In this document: positions 15,514-31,439 of the stretch, in pieces
Position numbering within the stretch: the first letter of the stretch is position 1
Layout of the letters: each line of letters starts with the position of its first letter
IMG/VR virus record: IMGVR_UViG_3300025160_000014
Span: 1 to 37,033 of that record
Direction: 5' to 3' (one strand)
From: a virus
Lineage: Duplodnaviria > Caudoviricetes
Length of the DNA: 37,033 nt
Notes under the pieces: model-generated
What the model saw: only the letters and a program-made list of their open reading frames with translations
The model's database searches: none
Told to the model about the DNA's origin: nothing
Program-made: the position numbers and the translations under genes

Positions 15514-16313
15514 TGGATATTTCTCCAGCAAGTTTTGTATCTATAGATGAGCTACTCAACGACATCCTGCCGCTTGTTGATGACGAGCGCCTGGAGGTAA
15601 ACACAAAAGGGTATTACACATCGATGATCCAGCAAGCGCTCGAAGCCCTGGCCTTTGAAACATTCTTCGATGAGCGCAGAGAGACCGAGCCATTCCCAGT
15701 AGAAACACTTACGATGATGATGCCAAAAGGGGCATTCAACCTTCGTAACGTCTACATATTCAACGGAACAGAATGTAATATTTGGAACAGCAGAAAGGTG
15801 TGGTGGAAAAGAAACTACTACACAAAAGGAAAGGGGTATATCGCTAACAATAAAGGGGAGCAAACAAGAGACCCATTCATCTCCGGAAGCTCTTTCCTTG
15901 ACCGCTACGAAAGCAAAGAGTTGATCCGATACAGAAACACCCTTGACCGTGCGTACTTCTACGAAGTGCAAAACGGAATGGTGATGTTTAGTAAGCAGTG
16001 CGCCTGCTATCAAAGCGTGATGCTGGAGTTCAATGGGACCGGATGTGACATCGGAGATGTCCCGATCGTTCCAATGTTCCTGCGTGCCGCAGTAAAGGAT
16101 TACGTGTGCGAGTTTACGCTACGTATCCGCATGGCAAAAGACCAAACCAATAAATGGGGTGGGCTGTGGAAGATCTACGAACAGAGATTAAATATGGACG
16201 AACGGTACGGTATCGGAACAGGGAGCTGGGGAAAGGCACAACAGTTTGTCAAAAACATGAATACATCTCAACGCGCTGAATTAAAAGAATATCTTTCGAA
16301 AAATGCCTGGTAG
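15513..16313 (+). CDS. Putative tail ring protein 3
   Basis: FVSIDELL N-terminus and GDVPIVP..LRAAVKDYV C-terminal pattern; position before the muzzle-like gene. Confidence 0.6.
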   Translation: MDISPASFVSIDELLNDILPLVDDERLEVNTKGYYTSMIQQALEALAFETFFDERRETEPFPVETLTMMMPKGAFNLRNVYIFNGTECNIWNSRKVWWKRNYYTKGKGYIANNKGEQTRDPFISGSSFLDRYESKELIRYRNTLDRAYFYEVQNGMVMFSKQCACYQSVMLEFNGTGCDIGDVPIVPMFLRAAVKDYVCEFTLRIRMAKDQTNKWGGLWKIYEQRLNMDERYGIGTGSWGKAQQFVKNMNTSQRAELKEYLSKNAW

Positions 16314-17020
16314 TGTATCCGGAAAAAACAAATATCTATACGTTGACTGACCCGAGAACGGGTCTTGTTCGATATGTCGGAAAAACAAACACTCCAGAGC
16401 TGCGATACATAAAGCATTGTTGTCAATTTGAGACAAACAAAAAGTCGAGCTGGTCTAAGTCGCTAAGAGCTGTTGGCTTGAAGCCGAAAATGGACATTAT
16501 TGACGAAGTTCCTTATTGCGATTGGAGGTTTTGGGAAAGGCACTACATAAACCTTTTTAAGGCTTCCGGAGCAAAACTTGTGAATATGATGGATGGTGGA
16601 ATAGGGGCAGAGCTTGCTGGGTCCATCTCGAAGAGATCAAAGCCGGTTCTTCAATATAGCCTGAGCGGAGAATTTATCAAGGAGTTCCCGTCAATAAGAA
16701 ACGCTTCTCACGCTAATAGTGTTGATCATGCCAGGATTAGTTTCGTTTGCATGGGCAGAAGATTTAATTCTGCCGGAGGGTTTATGTGGAGATATAAGGA
16801 TGGAGAAATTATATTAAAGATAGCCCCTGTCAAGAGGATGCCGTTTTCACCAATACCAGTTTTACAGATTAACGAAAATGGAGACATTATAAAAGAGTGG
16901 AAAAGCGTTACTCATGCGGCTATCGGATTAAAAATAGATCGAACATTGATATGGAGGCGTTGTAACGGTATAAATTCCGGAGCACACGCTTTTTCTTTTA
17001 AGTATAAAAATAATGCCTAA
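16313..17020 (+). CDS. GIY-YIG-like homing endonuclease with NUMOD1-type repeats
   Basis: N-terminal IYTLTDPR...RYVGKT...RY..H...E...N nuclease motif, plus two KPVLQYSLSGEFIKEFPSIRNA-type repeats. Confidence 0.85.
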   Translation: MYPEKTNIYTLTDPRTGLVRYVGKTNTPELRYIKHCCQFETNKKSSWSKSLRAVGLKPKMDIIDEVPYCDWRFWERHYINLFKASGAKLVNMMDGGIGAELAGSISKRSKPVLQYSLSGEFIKEFPSIRNASHANSVDHARISFVCMGRRFNSAGGFMWRYKDGEIILKIAPVKRMPFSPIPVLQINENGDIIKEWKSVTHAAIGLKIDRTLIWRRCNGINSGAHAFSFKYKNNA

Positions 17021-21492: not shown

Positions 21493-22365
21493 ATGGCACA
21501 AGATTTTGGCAAACTTTTAGGCAGTATCCTCGGCGGAGCCGCAGGAACTGCAATCGCTCCCGGAGCAGGAACTGCTATCGGAAGTCAAATTGGCGGACAG
21601 ATCGGTGGATCTATGGGCGGCAACAAAAATGGGGGTGGCGCTGGAGGAGGAGTTCTTAATTCTATCGGAAGCAACCCTTCAAATGCAGGAGCTGCTTTCG
21701 GCGGAATAAGTTCTATCATCCAAAATATTCAGAGTCTAAGAAATCAGAGCAAAGCAGAGAGTGCTATGCCTGAACTCATTGACCCCAATCAGGCTGCATT
21801 TCTTGCAGAGATCGGCCAAAAGAGAAAGGCGATGAACACCGGAGCAGAGTTTGCTGCCGGAGCCGGGCTTCTCGAAGAACAGGCCGGAACAACAGCCAAC
21901 GCAATCGTGAAATCATCAGGAGGAGACGCAGGAGGTGCCATAGAAGGACTCCTTCGTTCACAGAGAACAACAGGAAGAGGAACAAACGAACTACTTGCAA
22001 AGGGCGCTCAGGACCAGAAATTTTTCACCGGTGTTTATGCCGACATGCTAAACCGGATCTCGGCCCGCAAGATGCAACTTCAACTTTCCAGAAGAGCACA
22101 GGCTCTCGCCGAAGGCGCACAGAAAGGTCAGGACGCCTACGCAAACATGGCAAACGCTATCGCTAGAGTCCCTAGCCTTGGCGGACAAACAACGCCTACC
22201 GATATAAATTTTGACTCGCTTCTTACCCAACAAGGTAACGAGCCCGTAGAACCGGTGATGATGGATGAAAATCAACTTGTAAACAGAGAGATAACATCCG
22301 AGATGCCAGCTGACGGAACAGAAATAGATCTTAACACTTCCTCAAGCCTGCTTTCGCAGTTTTAA
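21493..22365 (+). CDS. Putative ejection (internal virion) protein 1
   Basis: Gly-zipper N-terminus LLGSILGGAAGTAIAPGAGTAIGSQIGG and Ala/Gln-rich helices; position after the muzzle gene. Confidence 0.7.
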   Translation: MAQDFGKLLGSILGGAAGTAIAPGAGTAIGSQIGGQIGGSMGGNKNGGGAGGGVLNSIGSNPSNAGAAFGGISSIIQNIQSLRNQSKAESAMPELIDPNQAAFLAEIGQKRKAMNTGAEFAAGAGLLEEQAGTTANAIVKSSGGDAGGAIEGLLRSQRTTGRGTNELLAKGAQDQKFFTGVYADMLNRISARKMQLQLSRRAQALAEGAQKGQDAYANMANAIARVPSLGGQTTPTDINFDSLLTQQGNEPVEPVMMDENQLVNREITSEMPADGTEIDLNTSSSLLSQF

Positions 22366-22366
22366 C

Positions 22367-24088
22367 ATGGCAGAGCCGATAATTGATACGGAAGAAAAAG
22401 AGTCGGTGCTGGATAGTATTGTGTCCAAGCCACAGGAGCCTGGAGCAGGGACGGTAACTGCGAACGACATTTACACTTTTGTTCCGGAGATGTCTCCATA
22501 CGAAAAGAGGATCTACGAAGAAAATTTAAAGAAAGAGAGGGTTCCGGCTCCCGGCTATCTACCTCATGAAACAATGTTTCCCTCCGCCTCCAATCAGATC
22601 AATAAAGGGTCTTACTCTGGAAGCGAAATAGGGAGTATGCCAATATTTGCTGCCGGCGGCCTTGCGCCGTTTGGAGTGTTCGACGCCCGCCAGAGGGCGA
22701 TCGAAAACGCCGCTTTGAAAAAGGCAAAGCAGATCGATGACTTCCAGAAAATTTACAAGGCGCCAGTTACAAAACATTCCTCTGTTCAAGGGAAAATTGA
22801 TGAAGGATATTATACAGGTCTGCGTCAGTGGGTAGAAAACTCAAAGAAAAAGTACGGATCGAAATGGACAGATGCGCTAAACCAGGATATATCATTCCAG
22901 AAGTGGAACCGTTCATGGAACACCGTGAAGGATATGGAAGACAAGCTGGTTGAATATGCAGCCCAGCTGGAAACAAAAGACAAGGATAAAAATTTCGTCC
23001 TCAGCCCACAGACCAAGAAAGGGTTGCAGGATTTCATGGAAGGGGTGGACGGCCTAGCATCAAACCCGTTCGACCCAAAAGGACATACGGTAAACTCGAA
23101 GCTATTAAAACTCAGGGCAGAAGATAACCTGGACGTAGTTGTTAATGACTCTGTTGATAAGTTGATCCAGGATGTGAAAACTTCATACCCTGGAACTTCT
23201 GATCAGGGGATCTACGATTTGATAGTTACTACGAAAACCACAGGAACCGGACCCGATAAAATAAACTCTCTTGCAGATGGGATTATGAAAACCCATTACG
23301 GAGATGGATCTTATTTTAAGAAAGAAGATGTTGTTGAGAGACTAAAGTCTGTTCTTGGAACAAAAGTAGAGAGAACGGTAAGTCATGCCGGGAATCAGTT
23401 TAATCCTTCTACTGGCGATGGAGCTGGATTCAAATATACTAATGATGATTTTTCCAATGAGCCGCAGGATGTGAATGTAAATGTGATGCAGACAGGCGGC
23501 GGACTGAAAGCTGGAAAGATTACTACCTCTGACGGAATTACATTCAAGAAACCGGTAAAGGTCACTATCCCGGCAGGGACGAAGATGATTGATTTTGACA
23601 AGGGTGGATCACTCCCATCTGGAGCCACTGGGGTTAAAGATGTAATTCTCGGGAAGGCGTTTATTGCTCCTACATATTTTAATTCGAAAGATCCTAAAGA
23701 TCCAGTTAACGGGTCTGTGATGACTCCAGAACAACTGAAAGACCCAAAGGCAAAAGGGAATGTGATATACGTCCCAATGGTTTTTGGTGAATACACTGAG
23801 AAAAATTTGGCCGGACAAGACGTAAAAAGTTCCGTTTCTATCCCAATGAGCGAGATCGAAAACAGCCTGGTGAAAGAATGGAATTCTGATGGAACGGTGA
23901 AGACCGGAATCCCGGTTGATATTTATAAGCAAAAAGCGGATCAGAAGAATCAAGAGATTAATCAGTCGGGGGTAAAAAAAACGTCGCTGTCTACAATAAA
24001 GGGGAAGATGAGTGATCCGCAGTGGGCTGGATACACCGAGCAAGAGCTTGTTGATTATTATAAATCTCAAGGATACACCGTAGAATGA
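22367..24088 (+). CDS. Putative ejection (internal virion) protein 2
   Basis: 573-aa Cys-free protein between the small and giant cargo genes. Confidence 0.6.
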   Translation: MAEPIIDTEEKESVLDSIVSKPQEPGAGTVTANDIYTFVPEMSPYEKRIYEENLKKERVPAPGYLPHETMFPSASNQINKGSYSGSEIGSMPIFAAGGLAPFGVFDARQRAIENAALKKAKQIDDFQKIYKAPVTKHSSVQGKIDEGYYTGLRQWVENSKKKYGSKWTDALNQDISFQKWNRSWNTVKDMEDKLVEYAAQLETKDKDKNFVLSPQTKKGLQDFMEGVDGLASNPFDPKGHTVNSKLLKLRAEDNLDVVVNDSVDKLIQDVKTSYPGTSDQGIYDLIVTTKTTGTGPDKINSLADGIMKTHYGDGSYFKKEDVVERLKSVLGTKVERTVSHAGNQFNPSTGDGAGFKYTNDDFSNEPQDVNVNVMQTGGGLKAGKITTSDGITFKKPVKVTIPAGTKMIDFDKGGSLPSGATGVKDVILGKAFIAPTYFNSKDPKDPVNGSVMTPEQLKDPKAKGNVIYVPMVFGEYTEKNLAGQDVKSSVSIPMSEIENSLVKEWNSDGTVKTGIPVDIYKQKADQKNQEINQSGVKKTSLSTIKGKMSDPQWAGYTEQELVDYYKSQGYTVE

Positions 24089-24606
24089 AGAAGATTTTTT
24101 TGTGGAGAGCAGATTCGCCAAAGGGCCCGTATCATTTGACGGATTTTTTTGCTATGGTTGACGACGAGGACTACGATCAAATAAACAAGAATAGGTGGTT
24201 TGTCATGAAGCTTTATCATTGCGACACTCCTATTGTTTATGCGAGGCGATACGAGGGTAAGAAAGATGACTTCCGAGCTATTTTAATGCACCGAGAAATA
24301 TTGATGCCCGATAAAGGATTGAAGGTTGATCATGTTGATGGGAGTGGATTAAATAATCAAAGGTCCAATTTGCGCGTAGCTACCCATTCCCAAAACATGT
24401 CCCACAGAACCAAAAGAGCGTCTGCTACATCTAAATATTTGGGAGTTTTTTTTGATGGAAAATCTTATGTTGCTTCGTGTAAGCACAATGGGGTAACTAA
24501 AAGAATGGGCGGATTTAAAACTGAAAAAGAGGCGGCGCTTACATATAATTATTATGCTCATTTTCATAAGGGGGAGTTTGCGAAACTAAACGATATCTAC
24601 TTGTAA
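24085..24606 (+). CDS. HNH-AP2 homing endonuclease
   Basis: AMVDDEDYD...MHREI...VDHVDGSGLNNQRSNLR.AT..QN (HNH) followed by SKYLGV...GGFKTEKEAALTYN..A...GEFAKLN (AP2). Confidence 0.92.
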   Translation: MKKIFLWRADSPKGPYHLTDFFAMVDDEDYDQINKNRWFVMKLYHCDTPIVYARRYEGKKDDFRAILMHREILMPDKGLKVDHVDGSGLNNQRSNLRVATHSQNMSHRTKRASATSKYLGVFFDGKSYVASCKHNGVTKRMGGFKTEKEAALTYNYYAHFHKGEFAKLNDIYL

Positions 24607-27600
24607 TGTCAATATTGAAAGAAGATAATCTGCCACCTCCCCCTCCAAAGAAAGGCAATTTGGGAGTGACTGAGGATTTGCCACCTCCACCGAAAAAAAA
24701 AATTTCGGACGAGCCGGTAGGCGTAGCGCCTCCCTTACCATCGAAATTCGGATCAACGGTCGGGGCGCCTCCTTCACCATTGGAATTAACTGGTGGCACA
24801 TCCGTATCGGCTCCTGGGCCATTGGATTCACAAGAGCCTACGGGCCCGATAAAACTACCAACGGAAGCGGAGTGGGAACAGATACAGAAGTCGGGCCAAG
24901 CGCCAACAACACTACAGCTTAGAATCACCTCTCCTTTAGGAAAGGTAACTCAGAAGACCATTAATGTCCCACAGATAATTCCCGGAAAAGAATTCCTCGG
25001 TCCCGTTCAGCCTATAAAAATTGGGACCAAAGAAGAGCAGATAAAGGAGCAAGAGACTATTGTTCAAAATCAGAAGGAGCTATCCGGGAAGAAGTTGAAA
25101 GATTTCTATGACACCTATCAGCAGACAAAAGGAACAGTAGGAGATGTCCTGGATGTAAATATCGACAAGCAGAACACCCTTGATTTGTATAAGGATTATT
25201 TAATGAACAATGATCCTTCTGAGTTAAAATATCTCACCTCGCGTCAGCAGGAATCGCAGAAAGATTACCTGATGAAGATTTCCGATCCAACCCTAAGCGA
25301 AGAGGAGAAAAAGAAGCTGCAACTGGACACAGAAAAATACGAGGCGGAACTCTATAATCGTGCGCTGAATTTTAAAGCATCTGTGTTCGCTGCTAAATAC
25401 GAGGAGGCGAAGAATGAGTTTGATCTTCGATACAAAGAAGATTTCAAGTTAAGCGAGCAGTATGCGAATGAACAGAAGGGGCTCTCTGAAAATTTAAAGG
25501 CTGTTGCTGATCGTCTTTCGAAATTTGAGAAGACAGACCAGGGATTTATTCCAAAATCTCCAGAAGAGCAAAAAGAAATTCAGCAACTGATCACCGCTCA
25601 CAATGAGATGGTGGGACAATATAAAGATGTAAGCGGGAAGCTAGATCAGATAAATTCTGAGCCAGGGTTTAATGAGTCAATGAACAAAATAAATAGCGTT
25701 CACGACAGCTACGAAAAACTGACAAAAGAAGCGGAGACATTTATAGATCAGTATCCTGAATTAAAGAAGAAGCTATCAGAGGTAAAAAGCAAACAGGCCG
25801 CTATTGATATTCTTGCAGACGTAAACCCCGAATTCGATAAGTTCACAAAAACCGGAGGACAAGTCATTGGTGCTGTCACTGGATTCTTGCAGAAGTTGAG
25901 CTATGTCCCAAAGATGGTTGGTGATGGTGATGAATTTGGATGGACAGATAAATTCTACGACTCATCTGCCGACATGTTCGAGGAGCTGAATTCTACGATC
26001 GCCCCAATGCCCACAAAACTCACAAAGCCTTTATTCGAAAACGGGAAATTGGATGCGGAGCTAATTCTTCCGAAAACAATCAGGACTCTTTCCGACATGG
26101 GTCTGCTTGTCGGATCGGCATACCTTACAGGGGGAACACTTGCCGCAGGCGGAGTAGCCGGCGGCCTAGCAAGCTCTATCGGCACAGTGTTGGCAGGAAC
26201 GGTCCTCACAGCAGAAGACTATTATAAGGATGCAAAAGCAGCCGGGATGAATGAGTCTGACGCTAATAATTTTGCATTTACAGTTTCAATTCAGCAGGGT
26301 ATGCTTGAGTTGATAAACCCCGAAATGAAACTTTTCAACAAGGGATTGTTCGGAACTGCCGCTAAAACGTATGTTGACAGACTTGCAAAAGGGGTTACTA
26401 AAAAGGTGGCGATGCAAGACGCCTCTAAGATTTTGTTTAAAAATGTGATTGGCGAGAATGTTCAGGAGACAATGCAGTTTTTCGATGAGCTCGGGAACAA
26501 GGACCTCGCCAACACAATCACAGGGGTGAAGATGCAGACCGATGAGAACATCGGAGATGCTCTGGCGGAGCAGTTCGTTCTCACTACACTCGTCTCACTT
26601 CCATTTGGAGGACTAGGTGTTCGTGGCGCTAATCAATTACAAAAAGAATCCTTGTATTTGTCTGCGTTGAATCCAATGGAGACAACTAAGGCCATTCAAG
26701 AGATGGTGAAGAACGGAACGATCACAGAAGAGAAATCTCTGGAACTTGGGAAAATTATTGACAATGCGTCTACTGCTCTCACAAAAATGCCAGCCAGCAT
26801 GGATGTGATGAAGAAGATAAATGCTCTTCCGCTGATGATGGAGAAGATGAAGATGGAGGAAGATGCAAAAGGGACGGACTCTTCATTCAAGCCGATCGTA
26901 GATGAAAAAATTGATGCGATTACAAAGGAAGTTCAGGATAGTGTAGGAATAGTTGAACCAAAAACAGAAACAGATGGCAAAGAAGAAAAAGCCGGTAAAG
27001 AAACCGGTAAAAAAGCCGATGTATTAAAGGCGCCTAAATCAGAGGAGCAACCTGCTCCTCTGAATCAGGACGAGATGGATGAACTAGAATTCTTGCAGCT
27101 GTCAGACAAAGAAGGCGTCACCACTCCGGAAGACAAAACGAGAATGGAAGAGTTGGTGAAACGTGTTCCGGAAGTGAAAGCTGAGACGAAAGAGGCTCCC
27201 ATAGTTACGCAAGAGGTTGTGCCCGTAAAAGAAACTACTGCTTCTCCGGAAGTTACTCCTGCTCCAGAAGTAATAGCTGAACCTGTGGCGAAGACAGAAA
27301 AAGAAGTTTTTGACGAGAAGAAGTCAACGATAGATACAAAAACAAAATTAACAGACATAAAAGATTTGGAGGTCGGAGATTATGTAGCTGTGAAGAATGA
27401 TAGCGGGAATGTGTACGAAGGCTTCGTTACTAAGATCGGCCCGAAGAACGTGTCTGTCGAAGGTTCTTCGATGTATGGCATAAGCGAAACGAAATTCAAA
27501 AAGGATAACATAGAAGGATTTTATAAACCTAAAACTGAACCCAATGCCAAAGAAGGTGGAAAAGAAACTCAAGGCGCAAGCCAAGAAACTGGGACTGTCG

Positions 27601-30600
27601 GGGAAACGCAAGAACGCATTCGTGTTCGGGACGCTGAACAAGCTAAAGAAGAAGTAGCTCCGGAGAATGTCGTTGATGACAAGGATGTTATTTCGACGCT
27701 CGACAAAGATCTCGATGCGATCAAAAAACTCCCTGCCGACAAAACAAAGATGAAGTCCACCGCAGTCAACATGCGGATCAACCAGGCCGTCAAAGAAGGC
27801 AAGCTAACAAAAGAGTCTGCTTACACCTACAGAAAATCCCTGGATGAAACCGTAGTGGAGAGAGGTAAGAAAGAGACGGCAGATCGCAAGCAAAGGATAA
27901 AAGATGCTATCTCTGTTGGCGCTGAGCTTCTCAAGCAAGACCTGGAAGATCTAAATATCATCTCTTCTCAGGATGAAGATGTGAAAAAGTCCGGGTTCGT
28001 CGACGCAAGAAAATTAATCGACCTCGCTGTGAAGATCGCTCACAAGTCTATCGATGCAGGATTTTCTGTTGCAGAATCGGTCGAGAAAGCCCTCAAGTCA
28101 GTAAAGGGGAGTGTCATATTTAAGAAGATGGTTGACGCAAAGATTATCGACGAGAAAGAGTTCGATGCTGGTGTGGGTGGCGTGTTTCAAAAAGCAGAGA
28201 AGCAAGAGCAGAAGGACGAAGAAAAAAAGAAGGACGAAAAGAAAAACATGAAGACTGCCGAGCGCGTGGCTACGGGAGAGTTTATTGATAAGGATATAAA
28301 ATCTGGGCTTGAGGAGAAGGGGTATAAGTATGTGCCGACATCATTGAAGATAACAAACGATGATGCCTCTGCATACGTTAAAGCATTCGAAGAGTCCGAC
28401 AATCTGGATAAAGCAAATGCCAATGTTATGAATATGCAGAACGGCATGAGAAATGTCGTTCGTGGAACCATAGCGGCAAAATTAGTGGAGGCATACGAGA
28501 GAAAGAAAAACTCTGCCGAAACATTAGAAGAAAGACAGGATGCTATTGATAATATAGTTGGACTAACAGTTTTTGCAGCCGAACTATTTAACGACTCCGG
28601 GCTAACCATCAACGCAGCAAAACTCTGGAAGCGTCTTGCCGAAAAGACTCCGGAAGGGATGGTCGCCGCCGTTAGAAAGCATCAGGAGAAAGAGAGGGAG
28701 AAAATTATCGATCCAAAAAGAAAGGATCTCAAAGATGCAAAAGCAGCACTCGAAGAAGTTTATGGGGAGGATGTGGAGAGAATCATTGAGGTTCGAGTGG
28801 CAGAAGAAATTGAGAAGAGGGGAGAGGCGCTGTTTGGCAAAGAGACGAAAAAGAAGATCGTTGACTTTTTCGACTCGTTTAAAATTGACACGAAAGGCAA
28901 GCTGTACGATGCCACAATGGGGCTTCCTATTGCTATATACAATGGCGCTGTTGAGATATTAAAGAAGTCAAGCCTGCTGGGAGCAAGCACAGCAAACGCC
29001 ATCAAAGCAGCAAAAGATTACGTAAACTCCAACTGGAAGAATGCGTGGCTCGATAAGGATTTTGAGTTGACATGGAAGGAAAGGATGGAGGGGGAAGACA
29101 CTCCTATCCCGAAGAAAAAGCCACTTTCTGAAACTCAGAAATCTACTATCCTTGAAAGGTGGGAAAAGCGCCTGTCGAATCTTTCGGAAGAGAACCGCCG
29201 TCAGCTTCTTGCGGATTCTGTTGAAGAGCTAAACACCATCGGAGCTCTTTCGGACAAACGATTTGAGGAGTTTTATGCCAAGGCAATGGGCTTGCAGACC
29301 ATGACAAATGAGATGATGCAAAAAGTTTTGCAACTTTCTAGTGTTATAGGAAAAGCCGAAACAGCATCCAGGGCGTTTGAGAAATCTTTCGATGACCAGA
29401 TTGTCGCAGAGAAAGTAGGCCCGCTCACAAAAGAGCAGAAAGTTAATTTTTTGACCGAACAAGAACAGAAGAGAAAAGAGTGGGAGAAGGCCGTGTTCGA
29501 TGCAGAGATTGCAAACAGGGAACTGAGCGAGCTATTTAGGGGAGACAAGAGGTTTTGGGACACGATGACATCTCTCATGCAGCTAAACCTTCTCACAACG
29601 AAGTCTCTCATAACAAACATCTACGCAAACGCGCTTATCCAGCCACTAATGATGCTTAGAAGGGGTGGTGCGAGTGCAATGGATTACCTTCTTTCAAAAG
29701 GAGCCGAATATACGCTTCTGAAAAGGTGGATCGATAAAGACAGAAAGGTGGATGCCTTTGCGTATTTCAAAGGAAATAAGAGGGGGATTATCCCCGGGCT
29801 AAAATTGGCCGGCAAAGCAATTCGCTACGGATCAACATCCGAAGATATCGAAAACAGAGATTTGCGACAAAGCATTGATGTTGTAAAATCGTGGATTGAT
29901 CTATACCGGATGACGACCGGTAAAAAGAAAAAGGATTTTGAGCAGTACCTAAATGGAATAGCAGAAGCCGTATTTGGACTCCCTGCAGTTGCGGTATCTC
30001 GCGCGCTCGCCCTCGGCGACAAGCCATTTTCTACAGCAGCAAAATTCGGAAAGGCCCTAGAGATCGGGAAGCTAAAAGGACTAAAGGGAACTGAGCTTGA
30101 TAAATTTATTTTCTTCCCGGATGCAGAGAGTGCAGAAAAAATAAAGCAAGCTGGGCTGGAGGCTGTATTTCAGCAGAAGACAGGACTCTCTGGAAAAATT
30201 CAAGGGTATGTGACCGACTTCGAGAATTATCTTTCTGAATTTCCTCTTGTTGGCGGCCCGGCAAGATTTGCATTCAGATCTCAGATTCCGTTTGTAAAAA
30301 CCCCACTAAACCTACTTAGCGTCACCATAGATTTCGCTGTACCTCCGGTCTCGCTTTACAAAGCGTTCAGTGCCGTAAAAAGCGGAGATAGGGCAGCGGC
30401 GCTTACGCATTTTAACAGCGCCCTCATTGGAGGGATGATATGGTATGCAGTTACAAATCTAATGATGAGAGGGCTTATGACCGCCGGGGCGGATGACTCG
30501 GATGACAAAAAGAAAGAGAGGGATATTCAGTACGAAAATGTCCCGCCGTATTCAATAAATGAGTCTGCTCTTGCCAGAATGCTTACGGGCGGGAATCCGG

Positions 30601-31439
30601 AAGTTCGCGATGATGACGTGTGGAGGAATTATCAAAAGACAGGAGTCCTTGGGATCACAATGTCCATGCAGGCAAACGCATATAAAAATATGAGCTCGGA
30701 CGAAATTGAGAAGATGAGCTATCTGCAAAGCGTGGCATGGAGCTTCCCCTCTGCTATGAAAGCATCACTAGACCAGTCGTTCTTGCAGGGAACAAACACG
30801 CTTCTGAATGCAATTCAGGACGGCGGGTGGAAGATGGATAAGTGGCTTATCAACACCACCGGAGCCATGAGTGCCTCGCTATACCCAAACACGTTGGCGT
30901 CAATAAGTAAAGCCGGGGACGAATATATCCGCGACACCAAGGGAGTAGACTTGTCCGACAGTTTTGTTTCCTTTTTCAAAAACAGAATGTTTATGGGCGA
31001 GGATCTCCCATCAAAAATTACGCTGTGGGGAGAGAAGGTTCCCAATGTTCCAAATCCAGATAAAAACGCATACGTTCACTACCTACTGGATGTAACCAAC
31101 AAGAAAACTGTCGACACAGAATATTTTGGATATAAGATTTACGATCTGTGGAAGAAGACCAACGATTCTAATGTTCTCCCAACCCCTCCAAGTAACACCA
31201 TACAGATTAGAGGAGAGAAGATACTACTCTCCTCTGACCTGTACGAAGAGTACCAGATCAATGTAGGAAAGTACAGAAAGAGCTTGATTCGTGGCATGGT
31301 CGAGTCTAGCACGTTTAAGGATATGCCTGACGAGCAAAAGATTAAGACCCTCACCAAGCTATATTCAGATGGGCAGGCCGCAGGAAAAAACATTCTTCTT
31401 TCCGACAACCCCGAGCTGATTGCCAACCTAAAAAAGTGA
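24606..31439 (+). CDS. Giant putative ejection / internal virion protein (2277 aa)
   Basis: Helical, Cys-free protein with a Gly/Ala hydrophobic segment (LLVGSAYLTGGTLAAGGVAGGLASSIG), a KOW/SH3-like stretch (LEVGDYVAV..SGNVYEGFVTKI) and a C-terminal PFVKTPLN-type region seen in large podophage cargo proteins. Confidence 0.75.
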   Translation: MSILKEDNLPPPPPKKGNLGVTEDLPPPPKKKISDEPVGVAPPLPSKFGSTVGAPPSPLELTGGTSVSAPGPLDSQEPTGPIKLPTEAEWEQIQKSGQAPTTLQLRITSPLGKVTQKTINVPQIIPGKEFLGPVQPIKIGTKEEQIKEQETIVQNQKELSGKKLKDFYDTYQQTKGTVGDVLDVNIDKQNTLDLYKDYLMNNDPSELKYLTSRQQESQKDYLMKISDPTLSEEEKKKLQLDTEKYEAELYNRALNFKASVFAAKYEEAKNEFDLRYKEDFKLSEQYANEQKGLSENLKAVADRLSKFEKTDQGFIPKSPEEQKEIQQLITAHNEMVGQYKDVSGKLDQINSEPGFNESMNKINSVHDSYEKLTKEAETFIDQYPELKKKLSEVKSKQAAIDILADVNPEFDKFTKTGGQVIGAVTGFLQKLSYVPKMVGDGDEFGWTDKFYDSSADMFEELNSTIAPMPTKLTKPLFENGKLDAELILPKTIRTLSDMGLLVGSAYLTGGTLAAGGVAGGLASSIGTVLAGTVLTAEDYYKDAKAAGMNESDANNFAFTVSIQQGMLELINPEMKLFNKGLFGTAAKTYVDRLAKGVTKKVAMQDASKILFKNVIGENVQETMQFFDELGNKDLANTITGVKMQTDENIGDALAEQFVLTTLVSLPFGGLGVRGANQLQKESLYLSALNPMETTKAIQEMVKNGTITEEKSLELGKIIDNASTALTKMPASMDVMKKINALPLMMEKMKMEEDAKGTDSSFKPIVDEKIDAITKEVQDSVGIVEPKTETDGKEEKAGKETGKKADVLKAPKSEEQPAPLNQDEMDELEFLQLSDKEGVTTPEDKTRMEELVKRVPEVKAETKEAPIVTQEVVPVKETTASPEVTPAPEVIAEPVAKTEKEVFDEKKSTIDTKTKLTDIKDLEVGDYVAVKNDSGNVYEGFVTKIGPKNVSVEGSSMYGISETKFKKDNIEGFYKPKTEPNAKEGGKETQGASQETGTVGETQERIRVRDAEQAKEEVAPENVVDDKDVISTLDKDLDAIKKLPADKTKMKSTAVNMRINQAVKEGKLTKESAYTYRKSLDETVVERGKKETADRKQRIKDAISVGAELLKQDLEDLNIISSQDEDVKKSGFVDARKLIDLAVKIAHKSIDAGFSVAESVEKALKSVKGSVIFKKMVDAKIIDEKEFDAGVGGVFQKAEKQEQKDEEKKKDEKKNMKTAERVATGEFIDKDIKSGLEEKGYKYVPTSLKITNDDASAYVKAFEESDNLDKANANVMNMQNGMRNVVRGTIAAKLVEAYERKKNSAETLEERQDAIDNIVGLTVFAAELFNDSGLTINAAKLWKRLAEKTPEGMVAAVRKHQEKEREKIIDPKRKDLKDAKAALEEVYGEDVERIIEVRVAEEIEKRGEALFGKETKKKIVDFFDSFKIDTKGKLYDATMGLPIAIYNGAVEILKKSSLLGASTANAIKAAKDYVNSNWKNAWLDKDFELTWKERMEGEDTPIPKKKPLSETQKSTILERWEKRLSNLSEENRRQLLADSVEELNTIGALSDKRFEEFYAKAMGLQTMTNEMMQKVLQLSSVIGKAETASRAFEKSFDDQIVAEKVGPLTKEQKVNFLTEQEQKRKEWEKAVFDAEIANRELSELFRGDKRFWDTMTSLMQLNLLTTKSLITNIYANALIQPLMMLRRGGASAMDYLLSKGAEYTLLKRWIDKDRKVDAFAYFKGNKRGIIPGLKLAGKAIRYGSTSEDIENRDLRQSIDVVKSWIDLYRMTTGKKKKDFEQYLNGIAEAVFGLPAVAVSRALALGDKPFSTAAKFGKALEIGKLKGLKGTELDKFIFFPDAESAEKIKQAGLEAVFQQKTGLSGKIQGYVTDFENYLSEFPLVGGPARFAFRSQIPFVKTPLNLLSVTIDFAVPPVSLYKAFSAVKSGDRAAALTHFNSALIGGMIWYAVTNLMMRGLMTAGADDSDDKKKERDIQYENVPPYSINESALARMLTGGNPEVRDDDVWRNYQKTGVLGITMSMQANAYKNMSSDEIEKMSYLQSVAWSFPSAMKASLDQSFLQGTNTLLNAIQDGGWKMDKWLINTTGAMSASLYPNTLASISKAGDEYIRDTKGVDLSDSFVSFFKNRMFMGEDLPSKITLWGEKVPNVPNPDKNAYVHYLLDVTNKKTVDTEYFGYKIYDLWKKTNDSNVLPTPPSNTIQIRGEKILLSSDLYEEYQINVGKYRKSLIRGMVESSTFKDMPDEQKIKTLTKLYSDGQAAGKNILLSDNPELIANLKK
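26974..27027 (+). CDS. Candidate nested basic micropeptide in the +1 frame (17 aa)
   Basis: MAKKKKPVKKPVKKPMY* preceded by the A-rich leader gaaccaaaaacagaaacag. Confidence 0.4.
   Translation: MAKKKKPVKKPVKKPMY
27544..27657 (+). CDS. Nested small basic protein in the +1 frame (37 aa)
   Basis: MPKKVEKKLKAQAKKLGLSGKRKNAFVFGTLNKLKKK* with the leader ttttataaacctaaaactgaaccca. It resembles stand-alone small phage proteins of the MPKKLE..LK..A.K.GL.G....AYVYGTL type (from recall). Confidence 0.65.
   Translation: MPKKVEKKLKAQAKKLGLSGKRKNAFVFGTLNKLKKK

Follow-up and report, generated by a model that had tools for sequence, protein, structure and literature searches.

The 37,033-nt window analysed here (the whole stretch of DNA in IMG/VR virus record IMGVR_UViG_3300025160_000014, a linear virus contig about 52% complete) very probably carries a real, separately translated small gene lying entirely inside a giant one. 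This nested open reading frame (ORF) runs on the + strand from an ATG at 27544 to a TAG ending at 27657, in the +1 frame of a gene of 2277 amino acids (aa) at 24606..31439, and encodes a 37-aa peptide with a net charge of +13 that belongs to a phage microprotein family characterized by MPK..A[YF]V[YF]GT. Start and stop both fall within the open host frame, with 979 host codons before and about 1260 after, and host residues 980-1018 overlie the nested gene. The peptide contains no Cys, no hydrophobic segment and no lipoprotein or membrane signal. A preliminary description, made from the letters alone, had reported this ORF; its 37-aa sequence, frame and coordinates were all confirmed as first written, and the leader at 27519..27543 and the host-frame reading over the nested gene both matched what it had quoted. 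The overall interpretation that we somewhat favor is that this family gene has its own start, from which it would be translated on the late mRNA, and that its product would bind nucleic acid while heads are assembled or DNA is packaged.

When scored with a family profile made from 102 peptides of other loci, with the window left out, the nested segment reached 62.7 bits (E 1.8e-18), against 4.6 bits for the next best of the 1342 six-frame segments of the window. The family loci had been fetched by a DNA pattern derived from the window peptide (MPK plus A[FY]V[FY]GT), which introduces a risk of circularity; this was removed by two controls. First, over the 24 columns left free by the fetch pattern, the score was 44.2 compared to -61.1 +/- 13.7 for shuffles, none of the 100000 being as high, and the window peptide thus belongs to the family outside the fetch columns as well. 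Secondly, after random synonymous recoding of the host peptide, the +1 frame stayed open in 2388 of 5000 draws, so that an open +1 frame is by itself unremarkable, while none of the 4987 draws scored reached the real family score (mean 1.7, maximum 29.1, real 63.8 bits). As no recoded draw came near this value, the wobble bases of the host gene are tuned to a second protein.

The family itself is large. The DNA pattern scan gave at least 120 viral loci (about 340 estimated); of these 120, 119 translate to full family peptides and one (L103) stops early. Among 3255 candidate proteins (20-88 aa), 2332 matched the profile (E<=0.001), the names displayed for these short proteins being "hypothetical protein". 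These large numbers bear out the stand-alone homologues announced in the preliminary description. Family members have a median length of 45.5 and a median net charge of +11, with an invariant A-[YF]-V-[YF]-G-T and an invariant L9, part of this invariance being set by the fetch pattern. The two-helix fold proposed earlier is also what AlphaFold predicted for homologue L050, as a hairpin of helices 3-15 and 21-33 (mean pLDDT 85.9). Fold searches found nothing in the PDB at E<=0.001 (Foldseek E of the top PDB match 2.2; highest VIA Z 4.5), and the two best viral fold matches were uncharacterised proteins of 45-49% identity. Sequence searches of the PDB returned nothing significant, Pfam and PHROGs had no match for the nested peptide or four homologues, and a word-indexed protein search with the 47-codon open frame yielded no candidate. 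A tblastn search of 50697 annotated phage records remained without a match for the peptide, for one homologue and for the portal, and therefore no cultured model phage was found.

The same family was found nested in other giant genes, which supports the preliminary description on this point. Among 272 loci examined, 249 had a family match, corresponding to 187 distinct DNA copies: 165 stand-alone or other, 21 nested in the +1 frame, none in the +2 frame and 1 in an antisense frame; the later scans were biased toward the codons of nested copies, so that 21/187 is not a frequency. The 21 nested copies comprise that of the window (L143-L145, identical to it, being counted as one copy), 18 with open host frames of 701-2531 codons, and two (L153 and L160) whose hosts of 203 and 288 codons are possibly spurious. 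In stand-alone copies, either sense frame was open about equally often (14/145 and 15/145), so frame openness does not explain the exclusive +1 nesting. This register is likely favored because a silent base would turn Lys codons into host Glu, Gln or Lys. The 42 hosts fall into 20 BLAST clusters, a number that overstates their independence since many are fragments. Host genes carry LPD38, LPD14, ART-PolyVal, PBECR5, InPase, SLT, GGDEF or C39 peptidase domains, a domain above the cut-off being present in 5/20 and 6/23 of the hosts other than that of the window, and together they contain 7 Cys in 28851 residues. In L126, the C39 peptidase domain (host residues 875-1014) starts about 25 residues after the nested gene. 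In L133 and L149, another basic +1 ORF is present near host codons 780 and 803; 32-33 aa long and preceded by GGAG, it is conserved between these hosts, which are 69% identical.

The trace left by the nested gene in the host frame could also be followed at the protein level. A profile of this host-frame shadow had 64 protein matches, 24 of which were a single stretch in proteins of 1195-3865 aa, two repetitive proteins and the near copy of the window's own protein having been dropped from this count. One of the matched proteins, P0149, is genuinely homologous to the giant protein of the window (C-terminal E 2.9e-101) and also bears the shadow. Inspection of P0002 and of short shadow-profile matches indicated that, in some database entries, the family gene has been called in the wrong frame or as a run-on, so that the shadow stands as a "protein" of its own or as the tail of an unrelated one.

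Start signals at the nested ATGs were found for the nested set as a whole. A Shine-Dalgarno (SD) match of at least 5 nt preceded 13/17 nested ATGs compared to 44/729 other +1 ATGs of the same hosts (Fisher p 1.4e-12; two short and two near-duplicate hosts were dropped from this 17-host test). The window phage is itself SD-less, with an SD at 1/24 starts, and the nested start at 27544 likewise lacks one. Its leader (27519..27543, + strand) is G-poor and A-rich, with TAAAA at -14..-10, and constitutes a candidate non-SD translation start signal. TAAA at -17..-8 was observed for 7/24 true starts versus 10/266 internal ATGs of three large genes, and 27544 was the only one of these 266 to combine TAAA in this interval with at most one G in -20..-1, the TAAA and G-poor criteria having been set after looking. 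This suggests that the nested leader follows the SD-less start style of this phage. A-rich, TAAAAA-type non-SD leaders are described for Bacteroidetes (PMC6028130). Only the SD-less A-rich leaders and crAss-type Pfam matches point to a Bacteroidota host, and no single cellular host emerged from the metagenome-assembled genomes at 20 family matches (41 genome-contig loci). Besides that of the window, the copy at about 3001-3089 of L134 is the sole long-host nested copy with almost no SD match; it also has a Phe at the first aromatic position.

Analysis of distant copies revealed constraint on both frames. Over the 24 free columns of 15 ungapped nested copies, aa identity was 0.447 in the nested frame and 0.237 in the host frame, although the nested-frame conservation is partly built in, the loci having been fetched by a nested-frame pattern. 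Of the two, the nested frame is the better conserved, in support of the preliminary description. Nucleotide identity by nested codon position was 0.50, 0.64 and 0.45 in nested copies, and 0.51, 0.65 and 0.33 in 145 stand-alone ones. A synonymous third-position T was used in 1/83 and 0/91 cases in nested copies versus 256/899 and 251/888 in stand-alone copies, and was avoided in the former whether or not it would create a host stop. None of the 37 codons of the window gene ends in T; codons beginning with T make up 13.8% of the giant gene and 10.2% of the nearby linker. Such avoidance fits selection for a stop-free, cysteine-free and hydrophilic linker, and order-promoting residues of the host frame represented 0.12 in the overlap against 0.25 in the flanks. 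The comparison spans distant copies, as no close relatives of the giant gene were found in viral contigs. The contigs of 4 DNA runs contained no variant letters, and no RNA data set was listed as containing the sequence. A 1687-aa near copy (P0003) differs at 7 of its first 1680 residues, one of them in the overlap (G996R), and was given no weight, being cut short with changes mostly of the K/N type.

Several observations weigh against our interpretation. Relative to the family consensus, the window peptide has F for Y twice and lacks the GW tail; a leader matrix built from the phage's own starts ranks 27544 only 26th of 266, and the nested leader has a C instead of an A at -3. The one unbiased scan found 2/120 loci nested (40 loci with short flanks). 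The shadow-profile matches were mostly obtained at the protein level only, their DNA not being seen, and at least two (P0129 and P0148) are the same as, or close to, host loci already counted. The departures from the consensus and the middling leader rank would agree with a fossil, that is, a once free gene that was engulfed and is no longer translated in this phage, and no close relatives were found for gauging current selection. However, the start, the stop and the length are preserved along with every core residue, the host wobble positions, which would be the first to drift, still spell the family, and the leader agrees with the SD-less style of the phage, making a fossil quite improbable. 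Even less probable is a programmed +1 frameshift giving a shortened cargo protein with a basic tail: the +1 frame is indeed open for 10 codons upstream of the nested ATG (47 aa in total), but nested ATGs are preceded by SD motifs at a spacing suited to initiation, and free genes start with the same sequence.

Regarding its origin, the small gene is probably older than the overlap and was captured rather than born in place. Free copies dominate, nested copies are equally near to free ones (similarity of 0.574 nested-nested, 0.574 nested-free and 0.585 free-free), and the host frame is information-poor, which makes capture of a pre-existing gene the more economical reading. The preliminary description had presented the gene as overprinted, which probably turns the order of events around: strict overprinting would imply a nested frame that is younger than the host frame and less widely distributed, and this is not what was found. 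True overprinting, with a birth inside the giant-gene linker and a later escape of the stand-alone copies, would account for the shared +1 register of all 21 sense-nested copies, and a tree with the nested copies in one clade is not rejected (p-AU 0.0675). However, 165/187 copies are free, with ordinary third positions, nested copies resemble free ones as much as they do each other, the hosts are spread over 20 BLAST clusters (inflated by fragments), and the host frame holds little information of its own over the overlap; we consider this alternative improbable. In the family tree (42 columns, 99 rows), 13 nested/free label changes were counted versus 15.1 after shuffling (30/500 as low), and this tree does not separate one old capture from many, which is a further point against our account.

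In the capture that we prefer, the small gene could have arrived by insertion, or have been engulfed as read-through lengthened the giant gene. Third codon positions would then have been fixed on A, C or G, yielding a hydrophilic, stop-free and cysteine-free linker in the giant frame, and the host linker indeed looks like the out-of-frame shadow of a captured older gene. A broader reading, which we regard as rather doubtful, is that the ejection or polyvalent genes of many uncultured tailed phages serve as a standing landing site for whole mobile genes encoding microproteins, each bringing its own ribosome-binding site and cycling repeatedly between a free head-module state and a hidden linker state. 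The linker would then be nothing but their shadow, the site would be shared by several basic families that are unrelated, and their products would form an unrecognised class of DNA-associated virion proteins in tailed phages.

That the microprotein binds nucleic acid in head assembly, in packaging or inside the particle is our best guess, although a tentative one, based on its charge, the conserved hairpin core and the head-gene neighbours of its relatives. Of 119 neighbours of stand-alone copies that were scanned, 44 had a named PHROG; 24 of these belonged to the head, packaging or connector genes (terminase, portal, head-tail adaptor, scaffold and others), 5 were tail or lysis genes and 15 others, by a hand count without background control that favors long well-annotated genes. 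Nesting in a late ejection gene would preserve the same timing of expression. Against this role stand the 15/44 named neighbours that are not morphogenesis genes, the bias of the count itself, and the lack of any domain or fold match pointing to a function for the family.

The main rival holds that the gene is separately translated but that its product acts late on the host cell (ribosome, RNA polymerase or nucleoid) rather than in the head. RNA and acidic proteins are natural partners for small basic helical proteins, and a phage-encoded bS21 has reportedly been linked to late replication. The 15 other neighbours are replication or metabolism genes, and the invariant A-[YF]-V-[YF]-G-T and L9, even if partly set by the pattern, suggest a specific partner and not charge alone. 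Conversely, head genes form the largest neighbour class, and no ribosomal or transcription-factor family was among the 9 Pfam families that at least one of 76 members matched at E<=10, which leaves a host-directed function rather unlikely. The same Pfam search of 76 members gave no HeH, SAP, Rho-N or HTH family. A lysis role, as a single-gene lysis protein or spanin, was ruled out by the absence of a hydrophobic segment in the peptide. In particular, an o-spanin of the Rz1 type was rejected, the peptide having no Cys or hydrophobic signal and the 2277-aa host gene lying outside the lysis genes.

The host gene (24606..31439, + strand) is very likely a large ejection or cargo protein, as the preliminary description had it. 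The window phage has matches to terminase, portal, SU10-type capsid, and crAss ring and muzzle proteins, and three genes on the + strand come after the muzzle gene (crAss_MUZ): a 290-aa gene at 21493..22365, likely a small ejection protein of the same operon judging from its position and lack of Cys, a 573-aa gene at 22367..24088, likely the middle one, and the 2277-aa gene. All three contain no Cys, compared to 12 in the terminase, 6 in the portal, 2 in the capsid and 15 in the muzzle protein. Such a small-medium-giant series of cysteine-free genes downstream of tail genes corresponds to the cysteine suppression and operon order described for ejection proteins (PMC11445570), from which the assignment follows as a good inference. 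The window's host has no Pfam domain above the cut-off, and LPD38 is a weak Atlas lead on it (0.96; recognition 1880, below 2300). An HNH endonuclease gene (24085-24606) separates the middle ejection gene from the giant one, and just ahead of the muzzle gene lies a GIY-YIG/NUMOD gene (16313-17020).

The preliminary description had also expected several nested microproteins, and the same linker does contain a second candidate, a 17-aa, Lys/Pro-rich micro-ORF at 26974..27027 (+ strand, +1 frame), which is less certain. Its leader ranks 40/266, an exact-tail pattern gave 0 matches, and a looser pattern gave 4 loci, 3 of which are similar free micro-ORFs of 14-30 aa (L205, L207 and L208), two with an SD. 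A second nested gene is plausible there, but the sequence is of low complexity. Further along the giant gene, from 28735 onward, a 75-aa basic +1 ORF with AAGGA upstream is probably the shadow of a Glu/Lys-rich stretch.

A literature search that did not extend to subscription papers and supplements retrieved no description of the family, or of nested genes in ejection or polyvalent genes; the motif AYVYGT occurred in 0 papers, and supplements of small-gene catalogues may list the family. The nearest named Atlas cluster is DUF6496 (PF20106), of similar size, with a score of 0.77, below lead level, in 15% of members, and 76 members had no Pfam hit. These results flag a family of thousands of unannotated microproteins, whose nested copies gene callers drop, and explain the recurring giant-protein "linker" motif ..NA[KE]..GE..R[VIL]R[VL]R[DN].. 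as a shadow. In tailed phages, spanins are the main known case of fully nested genes, and free and nested copies in hosts of differing domains offer a natural series for testing overlap by capture versus birth.

Among small basic virion proteins, the closest comparison is the DNA-binding protein J of phiX174, which is likewise very small. Proteins of this kind have a basic N-terminal part and aromatic and hydrophobic residues further on (PMC9865509), and share with our family a late, head-linked context. By contrast, phiX174 is a single-stranded DNA virus whose protein is mostly unfolded, while the family here is predicted to form a two-helix hairpin; no sequence or fold match links J-type proteins to it, and the comparison is a working analogy only.

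The hosts, giant, late and cysteine-poor, resemble polyvalent proteins (PMC5512222) and the ejection operons of podoviruses (PMC11445570), polyvalent proteins being predicted to be injected with the phage DNA (PMC5512222). Several hosts carry the same LPD38, LPD14, ART-PolyVal, PBECR5, InPase or SLT domains, unlike the window's own host, which has no Pfam domain above the cut-off. A word search of PMC5512222 gave "overlap" 0 times and no passage on nested genes.

The architecture is closest to that of lambda Rz/Rz1, where a whole small gene is likewise contained in a larger late gene, in its +1 frame (PMC6139136), the shared DNA encodes a flexible linker of the larger protein, and annotation misses the small gene. 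However, Rz1 and Rz are of similar size and form one complex, whereas here the host is 60 times longer and its domain content varies. The spanin survey reports no spanin family with both embedded and non-embedded members (PMC6139136), in contrast with the microprotein family, which has both.

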